Shown: positions 1 through 18,165 of the stretch, in pieces
Numbering within the stretch: position 1 is the stretch's first letter
Layout: every line of letters starts with the position of its first letter
DNA from: Candidatus Auribacterota bacterium
GTDB taxonomy: Bacteria > Auribacterota > Tritonobacteria > UBA1439
NCBI GenBank assembly: GCA_026392015.1
Contig: JAPLCW010000146.1
Coordinates: forward strand, 1-21,107
DNA length: 21,107 nt
Direction of reading: 5' to 3'
Notes under the pieces: model-generated
What the model was told of the DNA's origin: nothing
The model's input: only the letters and a program-made list of their open reading frames with translations
Databases searched by the model: none
Made by a program: the position numbers and the translations under genes

Positions 1-446
1 TGCTGCAGCGGTACGGCTTGGTGCTTCCATCGACGCTTGCGACGGCGTAATGTCGCTGGGTTCAACCGCCGGATGCCGAAAACGGCACGTCCGGTGGTGT
101 GGGAGGGACTGCGGGCGAAATCCCGCAGCCCCGACCCGATCCATAATATGCTTTTCTGCAAGAGGTAACGATTGGATTCCTGCTGGAGTTTACCCTCGTG
201 AAAACGGGGACAGGAATGACTCGGAAAGCATGTAAATGTCTTTTAATTGGAAACGGGGGAAAGTCCTCCTCCCGCAACGGCGAATAATTGACTAAAACCT
301 TCACCCAGTAGGTGCGGCTGAGTTAAAAACAATAATTTTGCAGGGTCTTGATTTATCAAGCCCGCCAACGGGTCGGATAAAACCTGTCCTGAGCTTGCCG
401 AAGAATCCGACCCCTACATTATCCGCCATTCCGGGCTCCTCTTGTC

Positions 447-675
447 TATTGTACTACAGGCTAAATTCTGCTATCATCAAACAACACGAGTAGCGGGGTA
501 TATCGAGCAAATTAGTCTTCTGCATACAGATCCCGGATACGAAAAAAAACCTTAGAAAACTTAGCGGCGCAAAGCCACGGGTCTAATTCTCGAGATAGCG
601 GAACAAGATGCCCGGACTACCGAAGATCTCTAACGGAGATGAGAAGTAGTTCGGATTTTTTATTGAACGGAAGGG
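447..675 (+). promoter_or_regulatory. Conserved ~225-nt non-coding 'A' element, copy 1 (candidate cis-regulatory leader or small RNA ending in a terminator-like hairpin and T-run), directly upstream of the S8 protease gene
   Basis: About 80% identical to 11237-11458. The nested hairpin is conserved in both copies (outer CCGAAG/TTCGG, inner ATCTC-loop-GAGAT with a differing loop) and is followed by T6 (655-662). No ORF is shared between the copies. Confidence 0.4.
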
Positions 676-3689: not shown

Positions 3690-3946
3690 AATCAGGGAAA
3701 AACTTGGGACGCATAAACGGAATAAGGCCGGGGCGGTAGAATGATTTACCATCCACCTGATAGCATTGAGAAGGTATTAGATAAGATGCGCCAGGATTTG
3801 AGAAAGACAGAGCCGTGCTTCTGTGATAAGTGCCGTCCTTTATTCCACGGTTTTTTAAACGGTGGTTTGAGAGATAGCCGGATAAGTAGGAGCGGGAAGC
3901 CAGTTTATATTATAAGGAAACAATCAAGCCAAAGGAGGGGATAAAG
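3690..3946 (+). promoter_or_regulatory. 'U' 5' element copy 1: TATA-like CATATAAACGG, small-ORF region, GGAAGCC(G/A)GTTTATAT box and AAGGAGGG ribosome-binding site
   Basis: Shares 75-90% nucleotide identity with the other U copies listed below. Confidence 0.55.
3741..3944 (+). CDS. Small conserved ORF inside the U element (MIYHPPDSIEKVLDKM..CFCDKCRPLF..); this copy has an ATG but a 1-nt deletion changes the C-terminus
   Basis: Peptide IEK.LDK.HKEL.KAE.CFCDKCRPLF..F.KRWFK.YPDK is recoverable from 7 copies. An ATG lies about 23 nt downstream of a TATAAA-like box, consistent with a leaderless transcript. No copy is fully intact. Confidence 0.3.
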   Translation: MIYHPPDSIEKVLDKMRQDLRKTEPCFCDKCRPLFHGFLNGGLRDSRISRSGKPVYIIRKQSSQRRG

Positions 3947-4780
3947 ATGAGAGCAACATTAGTGGTAGTTGCAAACGTGATGTTGATGGCGGGTTTGTGC
4001 GGCACGATGATAGCGGGGAGTATTGATTCACCCGGCGCGCCATCAGCGGGAAGCGGGATGTATACACTCTCTCAGATATATGATTACATGAACTCGGGGA
4101 TAGACGTAACACCTATACCAAGTTTCCAAGAACCCGCCGTGGCTCCCGGACCGACGATGAAGACCACGAAGCAGATTTACGAGGACATCAAGGCGAAATT
4201 TGCCCAGTGCAACGCGACTGCCGATGTTGTGATGCCGGGCTATACGTTTTTCTGCACGCAGCCGGGGAGTTGGGGAGTACAAACGGGAAACTATGTAACC
4301 CCAACCCCAACCTCAACGCCAACCCTAACCCCGACCATAACCCCCTCACCCACCCCAACTATAACTCCAACCTGCCCAACCGGTGACCCTTGGTATGTGC
4401 AATATGGACCGTGTGGGGAGGGTAAAGTGGTTCTGATAGGGAGCATGTACGTTGCCAAGTGGACAAATAATGAGGGCACCGCAAGCAACGAGAGAAAGGG
4501 TTGGCCCGCCGCCCGCCAATGGGCCACCGGACTAGACTGGTTAGGCAAGGACTCTGGATGGAGGCTTCCGACGGATATTGAAATAGCCTCCATATGTGAG
4601 GCCAAGTCTAGCCTGGGCGCGTACGAGGCTGAGACCCGCCCATATTACTGGTCCGACACCCAGCGCGACTCCGCGTCGGCCAACTGGATCGAGGACTTCT
4701 CTAGGCCTGTGGATTGCACCGTGCAGAGCGGCAACTGGGTCGACACTAACCGCGTGCGCGCCGTGCGTAATGCAATGTGA
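3947..4780 (+). CDS. Secreted modular paralog: N-module subtype II, PT linker, DUF1566/Lcl-C-terminal-like domain
   Basis: Signal peptide MRATLVVVANVMLMAGLCGTMIAG|S. Motifs GWRLPTDIEIASI..YYWSDT..VRAVRNAM. AAGGAGGG ribosome-binding site 6 nt upstream. Stop is TGA. Confidence 0.85.
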   Translation: MRATLVVVANVMLMAGLCGTMIAGSIDSPGAPSAGSGMYTLSQIYDYMNSGIDVTPIPSFQEPAVAPGPTMKTTKQIYEDIKAKFAQCNATADVVMPGYTFFCTQPGSWGVQTGNYVTPTPTSTPTLTPTITPSPTPTITPTCPTGDPWYVQYGPCGEGKVVLIGSMYVAKWTNNEGTASNERKGWPAARQWATGLDWLGKDSGWRLPTDIEIASICEAKSSLGAYEAETRPYYWSDTQRDSASANWIEDFSRPVDCTVQSGNWVDTNRVRAVRNAM

Positions 4781-4946: not shown

Positions 4947-5220
4947 AAAGAATAGAGCAGAATCAGGCAAATGATAAGGGCATATAAACGGAATAAGGCC
5001 GGGGCGATAGCATAATTTGCCGTCCATCTGAAATCATTGAGAAGGTACTAGACAAGATACACAAGGAGCTACAGAAGGCAGAGGTATGCTTCTGTGATAA
5101 GTGCCGTCCTTTGTTTCAGAAGTTTATCAAACGCTGGTTTAAGAGATACCCGGACAAGTAAGAGTTGGAAAGCCGGTTTATATATAAAGGGAAACAAGCA
5201 AACCAAAGGAGGGCGGAAAG
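4947..5220 (+). promoter_or_regulatory. 'U' 5' element copy 2 (small ORF lacks an ATG: ATA)
   Basis: Conserved sequence. TTTATATATA at 5177-5186. Ribosome-binding site AAGGAGGG at 5206-5213. Confidence 0.55.
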
Positions 5221-6284: not shown

Positions 6285-6317
6285 AATATCTATCATAAAT
6301 CTTAAAAAGCCCACACT

Positions 6318-6541
6318 TTTTCTTGCATGATCTAATTTTCTGTCCGCCTAAAAGCATTGAGAAGGTACGAGACAAGATGCACAAGGAACCAGACAAGCTA
6401 GAGGCGTGCTTCTGTGATTAGTGCCATCCATTATTCCGCAGGTTTATCAAAAGCTGGTTTAAGAGATACCCGGACAAGTAGGAACTGGAAAGCCGGTTTA
6501 TATATTATAAGGAAACAATCAAACCAAAGGAGGGAATGAAG
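6318..6541 (+). promoter_or_regulatory. 'U' 5' element copy 3 (small ORF carries an in-frame TAG at 6419-6421, where other copies have AAG)
   Basis: Conserved sequence. TTTATATATTATAAGG box. Ribosome-binding site AAGGAGGGAATGAAG. Confidence 0.5.
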
Positions 6542-7345
6542 ATGAGAACAACATTAGTGGTAATTTTAAGTGTGATGTTAATGGCGGGTGTGTGCGGCAT
6601 GGTGGTTGCGGGGAGTATTGATTCCCCCGGCGCGCCTTCTGCGGGAAGCGGGATGTACACGCTCCAGAACCTGTATGATTACCTGACGAGCGGCACTGCG
6701 CTCACGGTGCAGACCAGTTTCCAGGAGCCCACGTCAGGTCCCGGCTCAACGATGAAAACCACAAAACAGATCGGGGATGCCATCGCAACATCATTTGCCT
6801 TGTGCGATGCGACTGCCGACAAAGTAGCGAGCGGCACGAGGTTCTTCAGCACGGTGCCGGGAAGCTGGGGTGTGCAGACGGGGACATTAGTTGTAGTGCC
6901 AACCCCAACCCCGACCATAACTCCCACCATAACCCCAACCCCGACCATAACCCCAACCGCAACGCCAACAGTCCCTGCATATTGTTCCTCCGCTAACGGC
7001 TACTGGGCCCCGAAGAATGATGGCTCGGGAGAGAGCGGGTGTTGGATTAAGGGGGCTGTCGCCACCAGCTGTAACACAGCGTGCAACTCAAAAGGGTTGA
7101 AATGCGACCAAGTGAATTTTAACGACCCCGAGTGTTCAATAATACCAAATATACCTGGAGCTTTTCCGTGCAGCACTTGCGGGGGGTCGCTGACATACGG
7201 CAACGCCGTGCAAGCGATCCAGGGGTGTGGAAGCTGTGGAGGGTCGGGGGCGTGTCGCGTGAATCCCGCCGGGACCGCGCAGGACTGTTCAGCAACCTTC
7301 ACCGACACTAACTGGTATCTGCTTTGCGTCTGTATTCCCAACTGA
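6542..7345 (+). CDS. Secreted modular paralog: N-module subtype I, PT linker, Cys-rich C-terminal domain (type A')
   Basis: The N-terminal 120 aa are about 85% identical to the 5221 gene and nearly identical to the 9104(-) gene. An alternative ATG lies at 6536. Stop is TGA. Confidence 0.85.
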   Translation: MRTTLVVILSVMLMAGVCGMVVAGSIDSPGAPSAGSGMYTLQNLYDYLTSGTALTVQTSFQEPTSGPGSTMKTTKQIGDAIATSFALCDATADKVASGTRFFSTVPGSWGVQTGTLVVVPTPTPTITPTITPTPTITPTATPTVPAYCSSANGYWAPKNDGSGESGCWIKGAVATSCNTACNSKGLKCDQVNFNDPECSIIPNIPGAFPCSTCGGSLTYGNAVQAIQGCGSCGGSGACRVNPAGTAQDCSATFTDTNWYLLCVCIPN

Positions 7346-7881: not shown

Positions 7882-8820
7882 ATGAAAAGGTTGATGACAG
7901 TAACGTTTGGTGTGATCCTTGCGTCAGGTGTGGGCGGGATGGCAGTCGGTGGGAACATTGACTCCTCTGGCGCGCCTTCATCGGGCAGCGGAATGTATTC
8001 GCTCTCTCAAATCTATGACTATCTGAACTCGGGGACAGCGGCAACCATTCCCGGAAGCTTTCAGGAACCCGGAGCAGCACCCAGTTCGACGCTGAAGACA
8101 ACGAAGGAAATCTACGACGACATCAAGGCGAAGTTGGACCTGTGCGCAACCACCACCGCAGCGCATGTGAAAGCGGGCCAGTTATTCTTCTGCACGCAGC
8201 CGGGGAGCTGGGGTGTCCAGACGGGAACGCTCATTGTACCGCCGACACCGACACCTACGATAACACCCACAATAACGCCATTGCCAATTCTCGCATCCTG
8301 TAAAGCCATTAAAACAGCGATTCCTGGAGCAGAAAGCGGAACCTATACCATTGACCCGGATGGTTCGGGAGGGAATGCCCCCTTCCAGGCTTACTGCGAC
8401 ATGACCTCTGATGGTGGAGGATGGACTCTGGTAGTCCGGGTGGTGAACGATAGAATCCACTGCAACTCATCTGCGGCCGGCACACTCACCTCGCAGACGC
8501 AGGCCAACTCTGCCAAATTATCGGATGCGGTCATTAACGAAATTTCGACCGACTACTACAGGTTTACATGCGGATCCGTTACCAACTGGTTCGATGCTAT
8601 TGAAAAGACATTCCAGGCCGATGGGACCGGCGATACGACTATCACAAAGGCAAAAGCGACCGGGATCGAGGGTACGTGGTGCTACGGCCCCACCGTAGCG
8701 AGCGAAGGGGGACTCCGCAACGCCGCATGTTCGCCGACAAGCGTTTATGGGCACGTATCACTCGGCGGATGCTATGATTCGACGATCTGGGGGGCATCGG
8801 GATATATGTTCGCGCGTTGA
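7882..8820 (+). CDS. Secreted modular paralog: N-module subtype II, PT linker, fibrinogen-related-domain (FReD)-like C-terminal domain
   Basis: SCKAIKTAIPGAESGTYTIDPDGSGGNAPFQAYCDMTSDGGGWTLVVR matches the signature of the N-terminal half of fibrinogen C-terminal domains. It has a different upstream region (no U element) with a GGAAGGTGG ribosome-binding site. Stop is TGA. Confidence 0.8.
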   Translation: MKRLMTVTFGVILASGVGGMAVGGNIDSSGAPSSGSGMYSLSQIYDYLNSGTAATIPGSFQEPGAAPSSTLKTTKEIYDDIKAKLDLCATTTAAHVKAGQLFFCTQPGSWGVQTGTLIVPPTPTPTITPTITPLPILASCKAIKTAIPGAESGTYTIDPDGSGGNAPFQAYCDMTSDGGGWTLVVRVVNDRIHCNSSAAGTLTSQTQANSAKLSDAVINEISTDYYRFTCGSVTNWFDAIEKTFQADGTGDTTITKAKATGIEGTWCYGPTVASEGGLRNAACSPTSVYGHVSLGGCYDSTIWGASGYMFAR

Positions 8821-8984
8821 AGCGGCGCGAGAGTTTGCCGTGTTTTCCCGGGTGAAGCGGGGGCGATAGCCGCGCGTCGGATAGAGGTGGCGAAAGGGCT
8901 ATTATCATGAAGGCGATCCCGCGATGCAGGATTGGCCTGCTATGCTAGCCGTCGCGGGTCAGGGCATGCGGTATCCTCATCGCT

Positions 8985-9093
8985 CCCTGCCATCGGCGGA
9001 TTTAACCTCGGATCTTCTTACGCGAAGACTCGGAGTTATCTCCACCGGTGGGAAAGCGCAGAGCGCCCGCCCACCTGCGGATAGTAGTCATAT
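8985..9093 (-). repeat. 'D' 3' element copy 4 in reverse orientation, downstream of the minus-strand paralog
   Basis: The reverse complement matches the D consensus, including both hairpins. Confidence 0.65.
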
Positions 9094-9103
9094 TGTGTTT
9101 CCT

Positions 9104-10048
9104 CTACCTCGTGTAAAGGTACCCATCCTGGTCACCCGCAATACCCGGTAATATGCATCCGAAATAATCATCATATGCCCCATATATAGTCTTTGCCCCG
9201 GTGCCCGGTTGCCCATTACTCGTGACAAGAGCGGTACAATTTGATGGGTGGCAGTTGGATTCCGTTACGAATTCCCCAGTATAGGTCGTTTTATATTTCA
9301 TGATACCTGCTGTGCAGATACTTGTCGCATTAAAATCTTTGCCCGCTGCATCGAAGTAACACGACTTTATAGTGGTGTTGCCGCACGATAAACGATAGAT
9401 TTCGCTAGATATAGCATTTATTGACGCGTCAGACAGTTTCGCCGTGTCCGCCTGATCTGGCGCAGTTAGAGTGCCCACCGATGCTGTATCTATGTGCAGC
9501 CTGTTAGTTCCCTTCATCCTGACGACCAATGTCCACCCGCCGCCGTCATTGGTCATGTCGCAGTAGGCCGAGAAGGGAGCATTCCCACCGGAACCATCGG
9601 GGTCAATGGTGTAGGTGCCGTTGCCTGCAGAAGGAGTGGCCGTAAGAATTGCTTTACAGGATGCGTAAATACCATATGGGGTTGGAGTTGGCGGTACAAC
9701 TAATGTTCCCGTCTGCACCCCCCATCTTCCCGGCACCGTGCTGAAGAACTTCGTGCCACTCGCTACTTTGTCGGCAGTCGCGTCGCACATGGCAAATGAC
9801 GTCGCGACGGCATCACCGATCTGTTTTGTGGTTCTCATCGTTGATCCGGGCCCTGACGTGGGCTCCTGGAAACTGGTCTGCACCGTGAGCGCGGTGCCGC
9901 TCGTCAGGAAATCGTACAGGTTCTGGAGCGTATACATCCCGCTCCCCGCCGAAGGGGCCCCCGGAGAGTCAAGGCTCCCGGCAACAGCCACGCATGACAG
10001 GCCAACCATAAAAATCAAACTCAGAGCTACTGTGATTAACTTTTTCAT
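9104..10048 (-). CDS. Secreted modular paralog (inverted orientation): N-module subtype I, PT linker, FReD-like C-terminal domain; mosaic of the 6542-type N-terminus and 7882-type C-terminus
   Basis: Start chosen at MKKLITVALSLIFMVGLSCVAVAG (AAAGGA ribosome-binding site). YTIDPDGSGGNAPFSAYCDMTNDGGGWTLVVRM. Stop is TAG. Confidence 0.8.
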   Translation of the reverse strand: MKKLITVALSLIFMVGLSCVAVAGSLDSPGAPSAGSGMYTLQNLYDFLTSGTALTVQTSFQEPTSGPGSTMRTTKQIGDAVATSFAMCDATADKVASGTKFFSTVPGRWGVQTGTLVVPPTPTPYGIYASCKAILTATPSAGNGTYTIDPDGSGGNAPFSAYCDMTNDGGGWTLVVRMKGTNRLHIDTASVGTLTAPDQADTAKLSDASINAISSEIYRLSCGNTTIKSCYFDAAGKDFNATSICTAGIMKYKTTYTGEFVTESNCHPSNCTALVTSNGQPGTGAKTIYGAYDDYFGCILPGIAGDQDGYLYTR

Positions 10049-10104
10049 TTTGGTACCAATCCTTTCTTGATTCATTTTGAATTTGATAAAAGCGCGATTG
10101 CCAC

Positions 10105-10121
10105 GTCCCGCTCAGCGGGAC
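10105..10121 (-). terminator. Hairpin GTCCCGC-TCA-GCGGGAC downstream of the 10146-10967(-) gene; on the minus strand it is followed by a ..GCGCTTTTATC T-run or TATA-like box
   Basis: 7-bp perfect stem. T-rich tract 13 nt downstream on the minus strand. Confidence 0.4.
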
Positions 10122-10145
10122 TACAGCACTCGCGATGCAAAAGGA

Positions 10146-10967
10146 TCAGATACCTACCGGCGGGGCGCGGATGGGAGAAAGTTTGGCAAGACTGCTTCTA
10201 TAAACCGGCATATCGCAACACCGGATACGTGCACAGGAATCATCTTTTCCAATCCTTGGCAAAAAGACTGTCCAGGCATCATTGTCATATCTCTCGTGGC
10301 TGTTGCTCATCCCTGTTACGGAAACACAGCCGCCGGATATTTCAGAATCATCCGCGCCGCCCGAAAGCCTGCTCCTTGATTCATCCCCGATCTCTTTCCA
10401 AGGACCGGGATCTGTTTTCGCGAGATACTGCACGGTCCGGCCGGGCCCGAAATGCATCCATCCTGCGTTCTCTCCCCACGCATAGCCGTCAAACTGGCCG
10501 GTCTCATCCAGGTATACTCGCGAATGACTTGTGCGGAAGCTGACCCAGCCCGTAACTTCGGACCAGGCAAATCCTGACAGCTTGCCATGTCCATCGTTGT
10601 TGACTCCCCAGTCAGAGGAGCCCCGGTTGGAGTAGTGTTCCCCGTTCAGAGGATGGCCTTCGCCGAGACTCACCCAGCCGCAGTTCTCAAGCCATATCCA
10701 CCCCACCAATATATTCGAGCCGATCTTTAAGTCTGCATGTGTCGTCCTGAGATTTACCCACCCTGCGTTCTCCCCCCAGATCACGTCATAACCCGCTACG
10801 ATTCTGCCAGTCTTCGGTATGGCAACACCCGATTGCGGAATGCTGTCACTTCTTTCCGAGTTGGGGAAGAATGGAAAATCATAGCACTGAGGAAAGGGAG
10901 GATGTGCGGGTATGGCATTGGCAGTGGAGGCTGCGAAGAGGGCTAAGGCAAAGATAATTAGAGTCAT
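10146..10967 (-). CDS. Secreted repeat protein with tandem ~25-30-aa repeats carrying a G-W-[VIM]-x-[LF] motif (GENAGWVNL, ENCGWVSLG, AWSEVTGWVSF, AWGENAGWMHFG); family not assigned
   Basis: N-terminal signal peptide MTLIIFALALFAASTANA. Internal repeats are visible in the translation. The overlapping plus-strand ORFs lack features. Confidence 0.65.
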   Translation of the reverse strand: MTLIIFALALFAASTANAIPAHPPFPQCYDFPFFPNSERSDSIPQSGVAIPKTGRIVAGYDVIWGENAGWVNLRTTHADLKIGSNILVGWIWLENCGWVSLGEGHPLNGEHYSNRGSSDWGVNNDGHGKLSGFAWSEVTGWVSFRTSHSRVYLDETGQFDGYAWGENAGWMHFGPGRTVQYLAKTDPGPWKEIGDESRSRLSGGADDSEISGGCVSVTGMSNSHERYDNDAWTVFLPRIGKDDSCARIRCCDMPVYRSSLAKLSPIRAPPVGI

Positions 10968-11236
10968 AATATTTCCCGCAGGGGTGATAAAATCAACACG
11001 ACTACAATAACCCTTGATACATATACCTGCATATTCTGTGCCAACTTTACAATTTTTCCTTCATTAGTGAAAAATAGTTGTAATTGCTACGAGGCGAAGT
11101 AGTTGCAACTATATGCGCAAAGATACAGATTTTAAATGCATCCTAAAAAGCCCAATCTGCATACTTAGTTTATACCTCCGAGAGCCAAAAGTGTAAACTT
11201 ACTTTATGTCCGCGCTTGTACATGTCCGCGCTTGTA

Positions 11237-11458
11237 TATTGTAATACCAGCTAAATTCTGCTATCATCGAGAAACGAGTAGCGGGTTATATCGAGGAGAG
11301 TGATCGCTTACATACAGATCCGAAAAAGCAAACCTTAGAAAACTTAGGGGCACAAAGCCACGGGTCTAAATCCCGCCGTAGCGGGACAAGATGGCCGGAC
11401 TGCCGAAGATCTCTAATGAGATAAGAGGTAGTTCGGCTTTTTTATAGTTGGGGAAGGA
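11237..11458 (+). promoter_or_regulatory. Conserved 'A' element copy 2 (see 447-675)
   Basis: About 80% identical to copy 1. Hairpin GCCGAAG..ATCTC-TAAT-GAGAT..TTCGGC followed by T6. Lies about 340 nt upstream of the 11798 gene. Confidence 0.4.
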
Positions 11459-11797: not shown

Positions 11798-12598
11798 ATG
11801 AAAAAGTTGATGACGTTAGTGTTAGCTTTGATGTTTGCGGTCGGCCTGGCCGGTATGGCCATAGCCGGCAGTCTTGATTCACCCGGCGCCCCATCAGGCG
11901 GAAGCGGTATGTATACGCTCTCGCAAGTATATGATTACTTGAACTCGGGAATAAAGGCAACACCTGTCTCCGGTTTTCAGGAACCCGGCGCAGCCCCTGG
12001 TCCGACGATGAAGAGCACAAGGGAGATCTACGAGAGCATCGAGGCCAAATTTGACCAGTGCCCCGCCACTACTGCTAATGTGGAGTCAGGAGTGAAGTTC
12101 TTCTGCCATGTATCGGGAAGATGGGGAGTGCAGACAGGAACCGGGTTAATGCAGCCAACCCCAACCATAACCCCAACCATAACCCAAACCCCAACCATAA
12201 CCCCAACACCAGCCCCAACCATGACCTCAACCCCATGGGGATATCCTGATGTAGTCGTGATAGGTGGTATGTATGTTGCGAGCGATAAGGATGGTCTTGG
12301 ATGTGCGGGAGGTGGATCGAAAAATTGGACTGAGGCCGCATCCTGGGCAGAGGGCTTGGAGTGGTTAGGGGCGACGGACTGGAGAATGCCTACTGGGGGT
12401 GCGGGAGGAGAGCTGTCGACGATATGTGAGTACAGAAGTAGTTTAGGATCTTATTATACAAACTATTATTGGTCTGCCACTGAACTTTCCACATCGCTTG
12501 CGTGGGCAGTTTATACCTCTGAGGATCAATGGATGTGTGTTGTCTTCAATAACGATAAAAACGGACCATACCATGTACGTGCGGTTCGTACCAGATAA
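11798..12598 (+). CDS. Secreted modular paralog: N-module subtype II, PT linker, DUF1566/Lcl-C-terminal-like domain
   Basis: The real start is at MKKLMTLVLALMFAVGLAGMAIAG (ribosome-binding site GAAAGGAGAG); the track ORF from 11642 is an upstream extension. DWRMPT..ELSTICE..YYWSATE..VRAVRTR. Stop is TAA. Confidence 0.85.
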   Translation: MKKLMTLVLALMFAVGLAGMAIAGSLDSPGAPSGGSGMYTLSQVYDYLNSGIKATPVSGFQEPGAAPGPTMKSTREIYESIEAKFDQCPATTANVESGVKFFCHVSGRWGVQTGTGLMQPTPTITPTITQTPTITPTPAPTMTSTPWGYPDVVVIGGMYVASDKDGLGCAGGGSKNWTEAASWAEGLEWLGATDWRMPTGGAGGELSTICEYRSSLGSYYTNYYWSATELSTSLAWAVYTSEDQWMCVVFNNDKNGPYHVRAVRTR

Positions 12599-12836: not shown

Positions 12837-12884
12837 GCGGTCTTGTGGTGAAAGTTGAGCTGAGTATCCGGGCGGCGGCGATTC

Positions 12885-13040
12885 CCGGCGATACGGAAAA
12901 GTCCGGGCTCACCCAATACAAGGTACCCCCCCGACCAAGTGGGGTATATGTAATATGACAACGGTGATATACACATACTCTCTTACTCAAACACCGGGGG
13001 CAAGGACAAAAGGTATGGGAAAAGGAAGTGATGCGATGAG
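12885..13040 (+). repeat. 'E' element copy 1 (~150-nt conserved non-coding repeat: ACGGAAAAG.CCGGGCTCACCCAATACAAGGTACCCCCCCGACCAAG.GGGGTATATGTAATATG.CAACGGTGATATACAC...CAGACACCGGGGG..GATGGACAAAAGGTA.TGGGAAAGGAAG)
   Basis: Three copies: here, 18005-18165 and 19245-19380. Confidence 0.5.
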
Positions 13041-14382: not shown

Positions 14383-14626
14383 GAGCAGGATCACGGAATA
14401 GTACAGGGGCGATAGCATAATTTGCCGTCCACCTGAAAACATTGAGAAGGCACTAGACAAGATGCACAAGGAGCTAGAGAATGCAGAGGTATGCTTCGGT
14501 GATAAGTGCCGTCCTTTGTTTCATAGGTTTATCAAACGCTGGTTTAAGAGATACCCGGACAAGTAGGAGTTGGAGAGCCGGTTTATATATTACAAGGAAA
14601 TAATCAAACCAAAGGGGGGAGTACAG
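14383..14626 (+). promoter_or_regulatory. 'U' 5' element copy 4 (small-ORF peptide NIEKALDKMHKELENAEVCFGDKCRPLFHRFIKRWFKRYPDK; no ATG)
   Basis: Conserved sequence. TTTATATATTACAAGG. Ribosome-binding site AAGGGGGG. Confidence 0.55.
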
Positions 14627-15742: not shown

Positions 15743-16018
15743 CGGAGGCTAGGCGCAGAATCAGGAAAGAAATAGGAGCATATAAACGGAATAAGGCAGG
15801 CGCTACAGCATGATAACCGACCACCTGACGACATTGAGAAGGCACTGGACAAGCTCCACAAGGAACTACAGAAGGCAGAGGTATGCTTCTGTGACAAGTG
15901 CCGTTCTTTGTTTCATAGGTTTGTTAAACGCTGGTTTAAGAAGTACCCGGACAAGTAGGAGCTGGAAAGCCGGTTTATGTATAATAAGGAAACAATCAAA
16001 CCAAAGGAGGGAGTAAAG
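15743..16018 (+). promoter_or_regulatory. 'U' 5' element copy 5 (small ORF out of frame relative to its ATG)
   Basis: Conserved sequence, TATA-like boxes, ribosome-binding site AAGGAGGG. Confidence 0.55.
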
Positions 16019-16928: not shown

Positions 16929-17181
16929 GGAAAGATAGAGCAGGACCACGGAATAGTACCGGGGCGATACCATGATTTACCGCCCATCTGATACCATTGA
17001 GAAGGCACTAGCCAAGATGCACAATGAGATAGAGAAAGCAGAGGCGTGCTTCTGTGACAAGTGCCGTCCGTTGTTTTAGAGGTTTATCAAACGCTGGTTT
17101 GAGAAGTACCCGGACAAGCAGGAGTTGGAAAGCCAGTCTATATATTATAGGGAAACAATTAAACCAAAGAAGGAGGGAAGG
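16929..17181 (+). promoter_or_regulatory. 'U' 5' element copy 6 (small ORF with ATG at 16972, in-frame TAG at 17077-17079, terminal TAG replaced by CAG so the frame runs into the next gene)
   Basis: Conserved sequence. TCTATATATTATAGGG. Ribosome-binding site AAGAAGGAGGGAAGG. Confidence 0.5.
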
Positions 17182-17931
17182 ATGAGAGCAAAATTAGTGG
17201 TAGTTGTAAGCGTGATGTTGATGGCGGGCCTGTGCAGCATGGTGGTTGCGGGGAGTCTTGACTCACCGGGAGCTCCGTCGGCGGGGAGCGGGATGTACAC
17301 GCTTCAGCAGGTGTATGACTATTTGTATGCGGGGACGGTGCCGACAATTCCCGAGAGTTTCTAGGAGCCGATCGCGGGTCCTGTTTCTACGATGAAGACT
17401 ACAAAACAGATAGTGGAGGCCGTTGCAACGCCGTTCGCCCAGTGCTCCGCTACGGCTGCTGATGTTAAATCAGGCGTGAATTTTTTCTCCACGGTGTCGG
17501 GGAGCTGGGGAGTGGCGACGGGAACCATGGCACTCACAGGAAATGCCGTAGCTGCTGATGTGATAAGCGGTAAGAATTTCTACTCCAATTCCTGGACACA
17601 GCAGACTGGGACGTTAACCCAGTATCCCGCAACTCCAAGCGGCTGGAGCGGTGCCTGCGTCTGGAAAGAAGGAAATTTTACGCAACAGGATTGTATAGAC
17701 CTTGGATATCCAAATAGGCATACAAGGGAGGTGTGCACGTCCTACGGTATTTCGGGAGGTGGAGCAAGTATATGGGCGTATGGCGGTTGTTCAAACTCAT
17801 GCACGGGTCCGGGTTGTTCTTCTTCCGTAACGTATGTATCCGGGAACTGTTGTGGGGTGTTTACATGCTCCAACTCAGCAGGCGTTGGAGTTTGTGTGGC
17901 CTCCAGTATATACACATACTGCTGCAAATAA
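17182..17931 (+). pseudogene. Modular paralog interrupted by a single in-frame TAG at 17362-17364 (within the conserved SFQEP motif, where all paralogs have CAG); Cys-rich C-terminal domain type B
   Basis: ORFs 17125-17364 and 17392-17931 are in the same frame. ..PESF*EPIAGPVSTMKTTKQI..FFSTVSGSWGVATG continues the family alignment. The PT linker is replaced by a different segment. Confidence 0.7.
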
Positions 17932-18004: not shown

Positions 18005-18165
18005 CCCGGCGAGACGGAAAAGACCGGGCTCACCCAATACAAGGTACCCCCCCGACCAAGCGGGGTATATGTAATATGGCAACGGTGATATACACTCTCG
18101 CAGTCAGACACCGGGGGTGGATGGACAAAAGGTACTGGGAAAGGAAGCAGATATGCAGAGGATCG
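18005..18165 (+). repeat. 'E' element copy 2
   Basis: About 85% identical to 12885-13040. Confidence 0.5.

Follow-up and report, generated by a model that had tools for sequence, protein, structure and literature searches.

Segmental gene conversion operates in several bacterial multigene families, i.e., pilE/pilS of Neisseria, vlsE of Borrelia, tprK of Treponema, MgPar of Mycoplasma and PE/PPE of M. tuberculosis, and systems of the pilE/pilS and vlsE type combine one expression locus with promoterless or truncated silent cassettes. Polymorphic toxin loci, such as the Rhs and CdiA orphan arrays, vary by C-terminal displacement, the toxin domain being followed by its cognate immunity gene, and shufflons or invertible switches (R64 Rci/sfx, Mu Gin, P1 Cin) vary the tips of tail fibres or pili. 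Here, we describe a gene family that shares features with all these systems, on one complete contig of 21,107 nucleotides (nt; the window, hereafter) from a Candidatus Aureabacteria bacterium metagenome-assembled genome (MAG) with locus tags NTZ78_*. We focus on the gene that occupies positions 9104 to 10048 of its minus strand (the 9104 gene). An earlier sequence-only reading proposed that this gene joins the N-terminus of the gene at 6542 to the FReD C-terminus of the gene at 7882, with a breakpoint in the Pro/Thr (PT) linker. We show that the 9104 gene is a mosaic, but that this mosaic is the ordinary shuffling of modules and not a fusion of the 6542 and 7882 genes. The best explanation, which we hold to be probable, is a gene-conversion tract of ~280 nt in a cassette-borne member of a large modular family, as one instance of a repeated process that uncouples modules.

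Like the gene-conversion families, the present one has mosaic genes, in which paralogs share short non-reciprocal tracts and variable segments lie between conserved flanks. It differs from the pilE/pilS and vlsE systems in that the copies of its common N-terminal domain (the N-domain, or handle) are complete genes, with their own ribosome-binding site (RBS), start codon and signal peptide (one has an in-frame stop), and that it has neither a single expression locus nor silent cassettes. It also differs from antigenic-variation systems, as within-clone switching is not observed in this population, which is known here from one assembly; to our knowledge, the organism has no known host. As in the Rhs and CdiA arrays, a conserved N-terminal part leads, through a junction motif (here WGVQTG and a PT repeat), to unrelated C-terminal modules, with alternatives lying in tandem. 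Unlike in these arrays, the C-terminal domains (C-domains) are of binding type (FReD, Lcl_C, Laminin_G_3, FISUMP), and what follows them is a hairpin element, called D below, and a leader, with no small conserved immunity open reading frame (ORF).

The ORFs of the contig correspond to an S8 protease, ten paralogs of the family (starting at 3947, 5221, 6542, 7882, 10048 on the minus strand, 11798, 13208, 14627, 16019 and 17182), a 273-residue GW-repeat protein encoded on the minus strand, and an SPFH protein. All ten paralogs encode a signal peptide, a 91-residue N-domain (GSxDSPGAPS...WGVQTG), a Pro/Thr linker, and then unrelated C-domains: FReD-like in paralogs 7882, 9104 (minus strand) and 13208, Lcl_C/DUF1566 in 3947, 11642 and 15977, FISUMP in 14570, and Cys-rich in 5221, 6536 and 17182. 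The 6536 gene is the 6542 gene of the sequence-only reading (6542..7345, plus strand). The 9104 gene is an intact member of this very large family of modular proteins with a Sec-type signal peptide. Its product is identical to a database protein (P0001) named by NCBI 'fibrinogen-like YCDxxxxGGGW domain-containing protein [Candidatus Aureabacteria bacterium]', and its position between tagged neighbours suggests that it is NTZ78_09340. An RBS-like AAAGGA lies 11-16 nt 5' of the ATG at 10048; a longer ORF, up to 10075, runs into a conserved leader that is also present in a related metagenome locus, L024. The features needed for the argument are the following:

9104..10048, minus strand: coding sequence (CDS) of the studied paralog, 314 amino acids plus stop, with signal peptide, N-domain, short PT linker and FReD-like C-domain
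9980..10048, minus strand: signal-peptide codons 1-23 (MKKLITVALSLIFMVGLSCVAVA), of the common 'MKKLIT' type, unlike 6536
9707..9979, minus strand: N-domain (handle), residues 24-114, GSLDSPGAPS...WGVQTG, with the invariant columns of the family alignment
9677..9706, minus strand: linker TLVVPPTPTP, 30 nt, shorter than those of the nine other paralogs; the tract shared with 6536 has its 3' end here
9104..9676, minus strand: FReD-like C-domain, residues 125-314 plus stop, from NF040941, Pfam, AlphaFold2 and Foldseek
9524..9661, minus strand: NF040941 head, residues 130-175, NCBIfam model match
9677..9955, minus strand: shared tract, 9104 side, against 6635-6913 (plus strand) of the 6536 gene, 24 differences in 279 nt
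6542..7345, plus strand: partner paralog 6536/6542, with a Cys-rich C-domain, the tract at 6635-6913 and a 5221-like backbone
7882..8820, plus strand: FReD paralog proposed earlier as C-terminal parent, not the nearest relative of the 9104 C-domain

Over the shared tract (9955-9677, minus strand, against 6635-6913), the 9104 and 6536 genes are 91% identical in nucleotides, while the other window paralogs reach 62-76%. For N-domain residues 24-114, 84 of 91 amino acids and 90.1% of nucleotides are identical, the next-best match of 9104 in the window is at 78.6% in nucleotides, and every other window pair is at or below 80.6%. The near-identity of N-terminal regions that had been read from the sequence thus holds for the mature N-domain, to the exclusion of the signal peptide and the first ~31 codons. 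Among the matches returned by a search of 5.8 billion proteins, the N-domain closest to that of 9104 is also that of 6536, the others having at most 80 of 91 residues in common on direct comparison (in the search table itself, N-domain-only matches show at most 82% identity). The two nearest N-cores are therefore those of neighbours lying 2.7 kb apart, which fits a local exchange. In 60-nt sliding windows, identity to 6536 stays at 0.90-0.95 from ~9955 to 9686 and then drops to 0.4-0.55 past the linker, and identity to 7882 climbs from ~0.55 to 0.70-0.88 over 9700-9510 (0.70-0.90 for 7882 and 13208 together), so that the plot does flip at the linker. In the codon alignment, the final bases shared with 6536 are the PTPTP codons (9677-9691), which places the 3' end of the tract inside the PT linker, as proposed. 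A GENECONV-style permutation identified the 6536/9104 fragment (251 alignment columns, with 18 mismatches among 166 polymorphic sites) as the strongest in the family (P<=0.0005), and the mosaic nature of the 9104 gene is thereby confirmed.

The tract also has a 5' end. The maximum chi-square breakpoint falls at CDS nt 93 (window 9955), with 35 differences in the 93 nt upstream vs 24 in the 279 nt downstream, and a Fisher test comparing CDS nt 1-108 with 109-372 gives P=3.8e-9. Upstream of this breakpoint, the resemblance to 6536 is lost in the leader, the signal peptide and the first ~31 codons (62% in nucleotides). The signal peptide alone has 8 of 23 residues and 59% of nucleotides in common with that of 6536, vs 20 of 23 residues with those of the database proteins P0083, P0042 and P0002. 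What the 9104 gene carries is not the 6542 N-terminus, as had been thought, but a two-ended tract behind a leader, signal peptide and first codons of another, commoner type. It starts in the invariant PGAPSAGSGMY coding block and stops in the PT linker, and its two ends (~9955 and ~9677) point to a gene-conversion patch rather than to a single crossover. Between 9104 and 6536, codons 37-124 have a synonymous divergence (dS) of 0.25 and a non-synonymous divergence (dN) of 0.04, and codons 24-36 show one replacement in 13 codons with saturated synonymous sites. A dS of 0.25 in the tract means that the exchange is old. All along the 9104 gene, the nearest relatives change from segment to segment.

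The gene that had been named as the recombinant is thus a mosaic, but there is no reason to single it out as the recipient. When compared with its tandem neighbour 5221, the 6536 gene is 82-96% identical in the 210-nt leader, the signal peptide, the first half of the N-domain and the D element, and falls to 56-70% over ~6730-6913, exactly where it is 87-96% identical to 9104. The 6536 gene itself is thus a patchwork on a 5221-like backbone, which makes it at least as good a candidate recipient as 9104. The type of second N-domain half that the two genes have in common (CDATADKVASG..FFSTVPG) was found in eight FReD, three Cys-rich and two DUF1566 proteins, in a sample biased towards FReD matches; because of this bias, we assign no direction from donor to recipient.

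The C-domain of 9104 is predicted to have the FReD fold. The NCBIfam model NF040941 (GGGWT_bact) matches residues 130-175 over its full length (1-46) with 84.9 bits for a cut-off of 30, and Pfam Fibrinogen_C (PF00147) gives 25.1 bits for a gathering score of 22, but aligns over no more than model positions 15-52 of 221. In the AlphaFold2 model, pLDDT exceeds 90 across most of residues 130-260. Foldseek matched the model to PDB structures 131 times at E<=1e-3, and every one of the 50 listed matches is a lectin of FReD or intelectin type, with a probability of 1.00 and TM-scores of 0.23-0.47; Xenopus lectin XEEL, L- and M-ficolin, FGL1, FIBCD1 and intelectin-1 stand at the top. Hence, in profile score and modelled fold, this domain is like the bacterial fibrinogen-like 'YCDxxxxGGGW' proteins (NF040941) and the FReD lectins (ficolins, FIBCD1, intelectins). 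It differs from these lectins in that the first ~46 residues are the conserved ones and the TM-scores are modest; moreover, the FReD is here just one kind of tip, exchangeable for many others, on an N-terminal handle that the whole family shares.

The sequence comparisons indicate that the 7882 gene is not the C-terminal parent of 9104. The FReD stretch on which this parentage had been based is the conserved 46-residue NF040941 head, common to all three FReD paralogs of the window. Over the linker and head, 7882 ranks 8th (52 of 66 residues; 37 of 66 for 13208), 13208 is as good a match as 7882 for the head at the nucleotide level, and further FReD proteins match the 9104 head equally or better. 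Over the 134-residue tail, 7882 ranks 18th with 33 identical residues, vs 69 for P0003 and 61 for P0002, both encoded on other contigs. The match to 7882 fades past this head, and the final ~60 residues are unalignable.

We also showed that the histories of the signal peptide, the N-domain halves, the linker entry and the C-domain are uncoupled across the family. Twelve pairs of window paralogs, including 6536/9104, have significant shared fragments with differing limits, and the PHI test detects recombination (P<=0.001). Among 57 FReD-class proteins, relatedness in the signal peptide correlates with relatedness in the first N-domain half, N1 (Mantel r=0.60, P=0.001), whereas no correlation links N1 to N2, N2 to the linker entry, N2 to the C-domain, or the linker entry to the C-domain (r from -0.06 to 0.10). 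The 5221 protein and P0098 are 88% identical (116 of 132) in their C-domains, from the 3' end of the linker, and far more divergent upstream. Window positions 9705-11199 are 77.8% identical to the related locus L024 over 1502 nt and 75.6% to L025 over 1509 nt; this 1.5-kb 5' block (from the probable promoter region and the GW gene through the spacer to the signal peptide and N-domain), in which homology stops at 11200 and at the end of the N-domain (9705), is followed by a FReD in the window and by a Cys-rich domain in both L024 and L025. At the start of L024, an N-family ORF with the same leader has a concanavalin-like C-domain. N and C modules being uncoupled family-wide, the linker region is a frequent junction, and there are junctions inside the N-domain too. 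This is the part of the proposed role of the linker that stands. The pair 6536/9104, which had been taken as direct evidence for it, does not provide such evidence. Indeed, as its C-domains are non-homologous, any shared tract must stop at or before the linker; here, the linker coincides with the end of homology, and no active role of the repeat can be demonstrated from this pair alone. PT-coding repeats with periods of 6, 12, 18 and 30 were detected by Tandem Repeats Finder in seven other paralogs, and none in the 9104 linker, which is too short for this program.

The genomic context of the 9104 gene is that of a conserved cassette, with the order GW-repeat gene, 97 nt, N-family gene and D hairpin element. 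Its further parts and the adjoining D element are:

10146..10967, minus strand: GW-repeat secreted protein, 273 amino acids, NTZ78_09345, gene upstream of 9104 in the cassette
10049..10145, minus strand: 97-nt spacer and leader between the GW and 9104 genes, with the hairpin GTCCCGCTGAGCGGGAC (~10105-10121)
10968..11200, minus strand: conserved stretch preceding the cassette, probably its promoter region, with the right end of the block near 11200
8999..9090, minus strand: D element of 9104, 83.6 bits with nhmmer, with a long P1 hairpin, a GGAGATAACTCC hairpin and a near-palindromic P3 hairpin
8947..9031, plus strand: D element of 7882, with a different P1 version, an 81-nt alignment to the D of locus L004, folding as hairpins, and a weak nhmmer match at 8982-9038

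The same pair, with the GW gene directly upstream of its N-family partner and in the same orientation, recurs in L002 (Ca. Tritonobacter lacicola), L005, L007, L018, L019, L023, L024 and L025. The spacer between the two measures 97 nt in the window and in L024, 93 nt in L025, and other lengths in the remaining six loci; the 97-nt spacer is nearly identical in L024, and its 3' half is kept in L025. For the GW-repeat protein, 267 homologues were found, of which at least 46 are NTZ78_* paralogs whose tags are interspersed among those of the N-family; it has no match in Pfam, NCBIfam, PHROGs or the PDB. The 9104 gene is the sole inverted copy among 46 N-domain matches (window and loci L001-L023). 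It had been supposed that this inversion shows units moving as blocks of a gene and its D. Since 9104 belongs to a conserved GW cassette that has its own leader, it does not represent an array unit that was flipped; the minus-strand unit is the cassette of GW gene, N-family gene and D.

As had been noticed earlier, a minus-strand D does follow the 9104 gene in its own orientation, within ~100 nt of the stop codon, and it folds with -39.8 kcal/mol (z = -4.1). There are eight D copies in the window and 15 co-oriented copies of at least 30 bits in related metagenome loci, and D is always 3' of, and co-oriented with, an N-family gene. The variable C-domain is thus flanked by conserved sequence on both sides, the handle and linker 5' and D 3'. 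Judged by single-sequence folds, P1 forms a long hairpin, of which there are at least four versions unrelated in sequence. As these versions are beyond alignment by MAFFT, RNAalifold on 21 D copies recovered just two short conserved hairpins and no covariation; no Rfam family matches D. Terminator-like matches cover P3 in five D copies, with a scan total not above the shuffled expectation. An identity of D with integron attC sites was dropped, as each gene has its own leader and RBS and no R'/R'' boxes could be seen by eye. The D of 7882 (plus strand) and that of 9104 (minus strand) are fused tail-to-tail at a common near-palindromic P3 hairpin (9010-9031); the plus-strand array and the minus-strand cassette therefore meet exactly within a palindrome. 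Had the inversion occurred between two D elements, the opposite border of the minus-strand block, near 11200, would be expected to carry a P3 palindrome as well, and none was found there. At 11206-11236, 6 nt past the end of cassette homology (11200), lies a 16-nt perfect tandem duplication (ATGTCCGCGCTTGTAC, 1.9 copies). In L024 (4327-9607), the GW/N-handle pair is directly upstream of genes for MshEN, T2SSE, T2SSF, a PAS histidine kinase and a sigma-54 response regulator, which may connect the pair with a type IV pilus or with the machinery of type II secretion.

Taken as a whole, we propose that a non-reciprocal homologous-recombination event between two inverted paralogs 2.7 kb apart would have left the ~280-nt tract, from the PGAPSAGSGMY block to the PT linker where alignable homology ends. 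The mechanism would be ectopic gene conversion of RecA type, with tracts that would start and stop in the most conserved coding blocks, i.e., PGAPSAGSGMY and WGVQTG with the PT repeat. The same process, repeated many times over the >100 paralogs of a genome, would have uncoupled the signal peptide, the N-domain halves, the linker entry and the C-domain.

Several points weigh against this account. Permutation tests treat sites as exchangeable and are inflated by variation in constraint from site to site, although the pair-specific pattern argues against such inflation. The true donor could be an unsampled paralog among the ~100 others of the genome. The dS of 0.25 shows an exchange that is not recent, so that ongoing activity of the process is not implied, and the family-wide distribution of breakpoints rests on segment comparisons at the protein level. 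Finally, what concerns function (secretion, lectin role, docking on the GW protein) is conjecture, and the N-domain model is of low confidence.

The most novel alternative, unlikely though we judge it, goes further. In this scheme, the two co-amplified families of Auribacterota would form a dedicated combinatorial repertoire. The handle and PT repeat, 5' of the variable C-domain, and the palindromic D, 3' of it, would be conserved recombination substrates that actively promote the exchange of cassettes, possibly also by inversion between copies in opposite orientation such as 6536 and 9104, and a constantly renewed set of lectin-like tips would be displayed on a GW-anchored handle.

A switch of the shufflon type comes next, and is quite improbable. 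The N-domains of 6536 and 9104 form inverted repeats (6560-6912/9678-10030), and a 2.8-kb inversion between them would swap the Cys-rich and FReD C-domains. This 353-nt repeat, 86% identical, has the 7882 gene, the fused D elements and both C-domains between its arms. The core of high identity stops precisely at both linkers, and one of the arms is the sole inverted N-domain copy mentioned above; in principle, the repeat could mediate such an inversion. As in shufflons, inverted copies of a conserved 5' coding segment thus bracket alternative C-terminal segments. Unlike in shufflons, no gene for a site-specific recombinase is present in the 21-kb contig (one elsewhere in the genome is possible), nor is there room for it, all ORFs of more than 150 residues being protease, paralog, GW, SPFH or antisense shadow. 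Short crossover sites are also lacking, the repeats being long, diverged coding homology, with an identity of ~91% in the core and a dS of 0.25 that mean no recent homogenisation. The second orientation has not been observed and no alternative arrangement exists in the databases searched; moreover, the cassette accounts for the minus orientation.

The single crossover in the PT microsatellite, which would have joined the 6542 N-half to a 7882-type FReD half before the product moved or inverted as a gene+D unit, is very improbable. It agrees with the end of 6536 identity in the PTPTP codons, with the climb of 7882 identity just after, and with the presence of a D element 3' of the gene. However, such a crossover would also carry the leader, the signal peptide and the first ~31 codons, which are unlike those of 6536. 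The FReD tail is nearer to P0003 than to 7882 and, for the FReD head, 13208 equals 7882 in nucleotides, though it is lower in protein. The 9104 gene also sits in the conserved GW cassette with its own leader.

An assembly artefact, in which a short-read assembler jumped between paralogs inside a repeat that they share and made a chimeric gene present in no cell, is highly improbable. The contig comes from a MAG with >100 paralogs, and many family contigs in databases are short (1-5 kb), which indicates that the family is difficult to assemble. On the contrary, no exact match of the 9104 gene elsewhere in the window is longer than 41 nt, and the tract has its 24 mismatches evenly spread, which makes an assembly chimera unlikely; over the 5' part (GW gene, spacer, signal peptide, N-domain), metagenome contigs of independent origin are collinear with the window, and FReD proteins of the same overall architecture occur in other samples.

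The least probable explanation, i.e., recent duplicates without recombination whose N-core was held by purifying selection while the signal peptide and C-domain diverged fast, agrees with the N-domain being the most constrained part of the family, but fails on C-domains of different folds or classes (Cys-rich vs FReD), on codons 24-36 being synonymously saturated next to a tract with a dS of 0.25, on the 82-96% identity of 6536 to 5221 on both sides of the tract, and on the PHI test. A mechanism based on a diversity-generating retroelement was considered and set aside, as the window holds no reverse transcriptase or template repeat and the variation in N2 is in discrete types.

In the window, nine of the ten paralog copies are complete ORFs with an RBS-like sequence, an ATG and a signal peptide. 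The tenth (17182-17931, plus strand) has a single in-frame TAG at 17365-17367, which replaces the near-invariant Q of SFQEP; as a consequence, the ORF finder listed just its 3' part, 17392-17931. This copy is either a pseudogene or a population variant. The N-domain invariants that follow the signal peptide are all present in the 9104 gene (G..DS.G.P..GSGMY...Y.D...SG...FQEP..P..T...I...C...V..G..FF...G.WGV.TG), and a profile search with the N-domain finds relatives of the 9104 protein at E-values down to 1e-63. No match was found for the N-domain in Pfam, NCBIfam, PHROGs or PDB sequences; modelled alone with AlphaFold2, it reaches moderate to low confidence (pLDDT ~65), and the model has zero Foldseek matches. 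The handle profile matches 1038 cluster representatives, and members were seen in Auribacterota MAGs and unclassified metagenome contigs. Among 120 handle-family representatives, Pfam assigned Lcl_C to 34 C-domains, Laminin_G_3 to 12, FISUMP to 5 and DUF2341 to 3. The GW and N-handle families together make up at least ~115 genes of one ~3,000-gene MAG (at least ~3.7% of annotated genes), and the literature searches made here turned up no account of the family or of this two-family setting. In six cluster representatives (P0188, P0190, P0194, P0196, P0207 and P0208), the handle stands at the extreme C-terminus, ending in WGVQTG; this could be a different architecture, or the result of gene calls truncated or merged at contig ends.

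Some further elements of the contig were recorded. U1 leaders lie at 3726-3944, 4997-5161, 6299-6421, 14402-14566, 15776-15958 and 16957-17120; those of five to six paralogs contain a conserved frame (...EKALDKMHKEL.KAEVCFCDKCRPLFHRFIKRWFKRYPDK*) without a conserved start codon and with stops or frameshifts in three copies. This frame looks like the relic 3' end of a gene that was duplicated together with the unit, and no significant sense-strand blastx similarity supports an origin of the U1 leader or relic ORF from the GW gene. A direct repeat of 91 nt, 96% identical and unrelated to D, is found at 12884-12974 and 18005-18095 (plus strand), one copy 5' of 13208 and the other 3' of the 17182 paralog. 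A c-di-GMP-I aptamer at 11317-11407 (plus strand; 57.6 bits, above gathering) lies ~390 nt upstream of the DUF1566-type paralog starting at 11798, and the S8 protease is preceded by a weaker match at 537-624 (plus strand; 31 bits, below gathering). Riboswitch control of the whole family was rejected, as the aptamer precedes no other paralog of the window and none of the 16 related loci scanned has it. At the start of the contig, positions 64-140 (plus strand) match group II intron domains V/VI with 43.7 bits for a gathering score of 40.

The mosaic alone is an ordinary outcome of ectopic recombination in a multigene family, and tracts that end where homology ends are what is expected. The setting made of two families in an uncultivated phylum, with a common 91-residue handle placed by PT linkers on many lectin-like domains, is the more interesting part. 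From their signal peptides, the proteins would be secreted; the C-domains, mostly lectin-like, may act as lectins or adhesins or have another binding role, and the N-domain may have a docking role, possibly onto the GW partner. By functional analogy, the family is like the dockerin-bearing proteins of cellulosomes, which also have a small conserved module, a Pro/Thr-rich linker and a variable domain and are amplified many times per genome; a candidate partner, the GW-repeat protein, is encoded next to an N-handle gene. It is unlike dockerin and cohesin in having no sequence or fold similarity to them and an N-terminal handle, and the interaction with GW is a candidate one. If the handle docks onto the GW partner, the two families would form a modular surface-display system, dockerin-cohesin-like in its logic. 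The arrays would, in addition, offer a natural case in which the shuffling of domains at linkers is tractable. Each of these two points could help in assigning an ecological role to Auribacterota, for instance, attachment to particles, prey or hosts.

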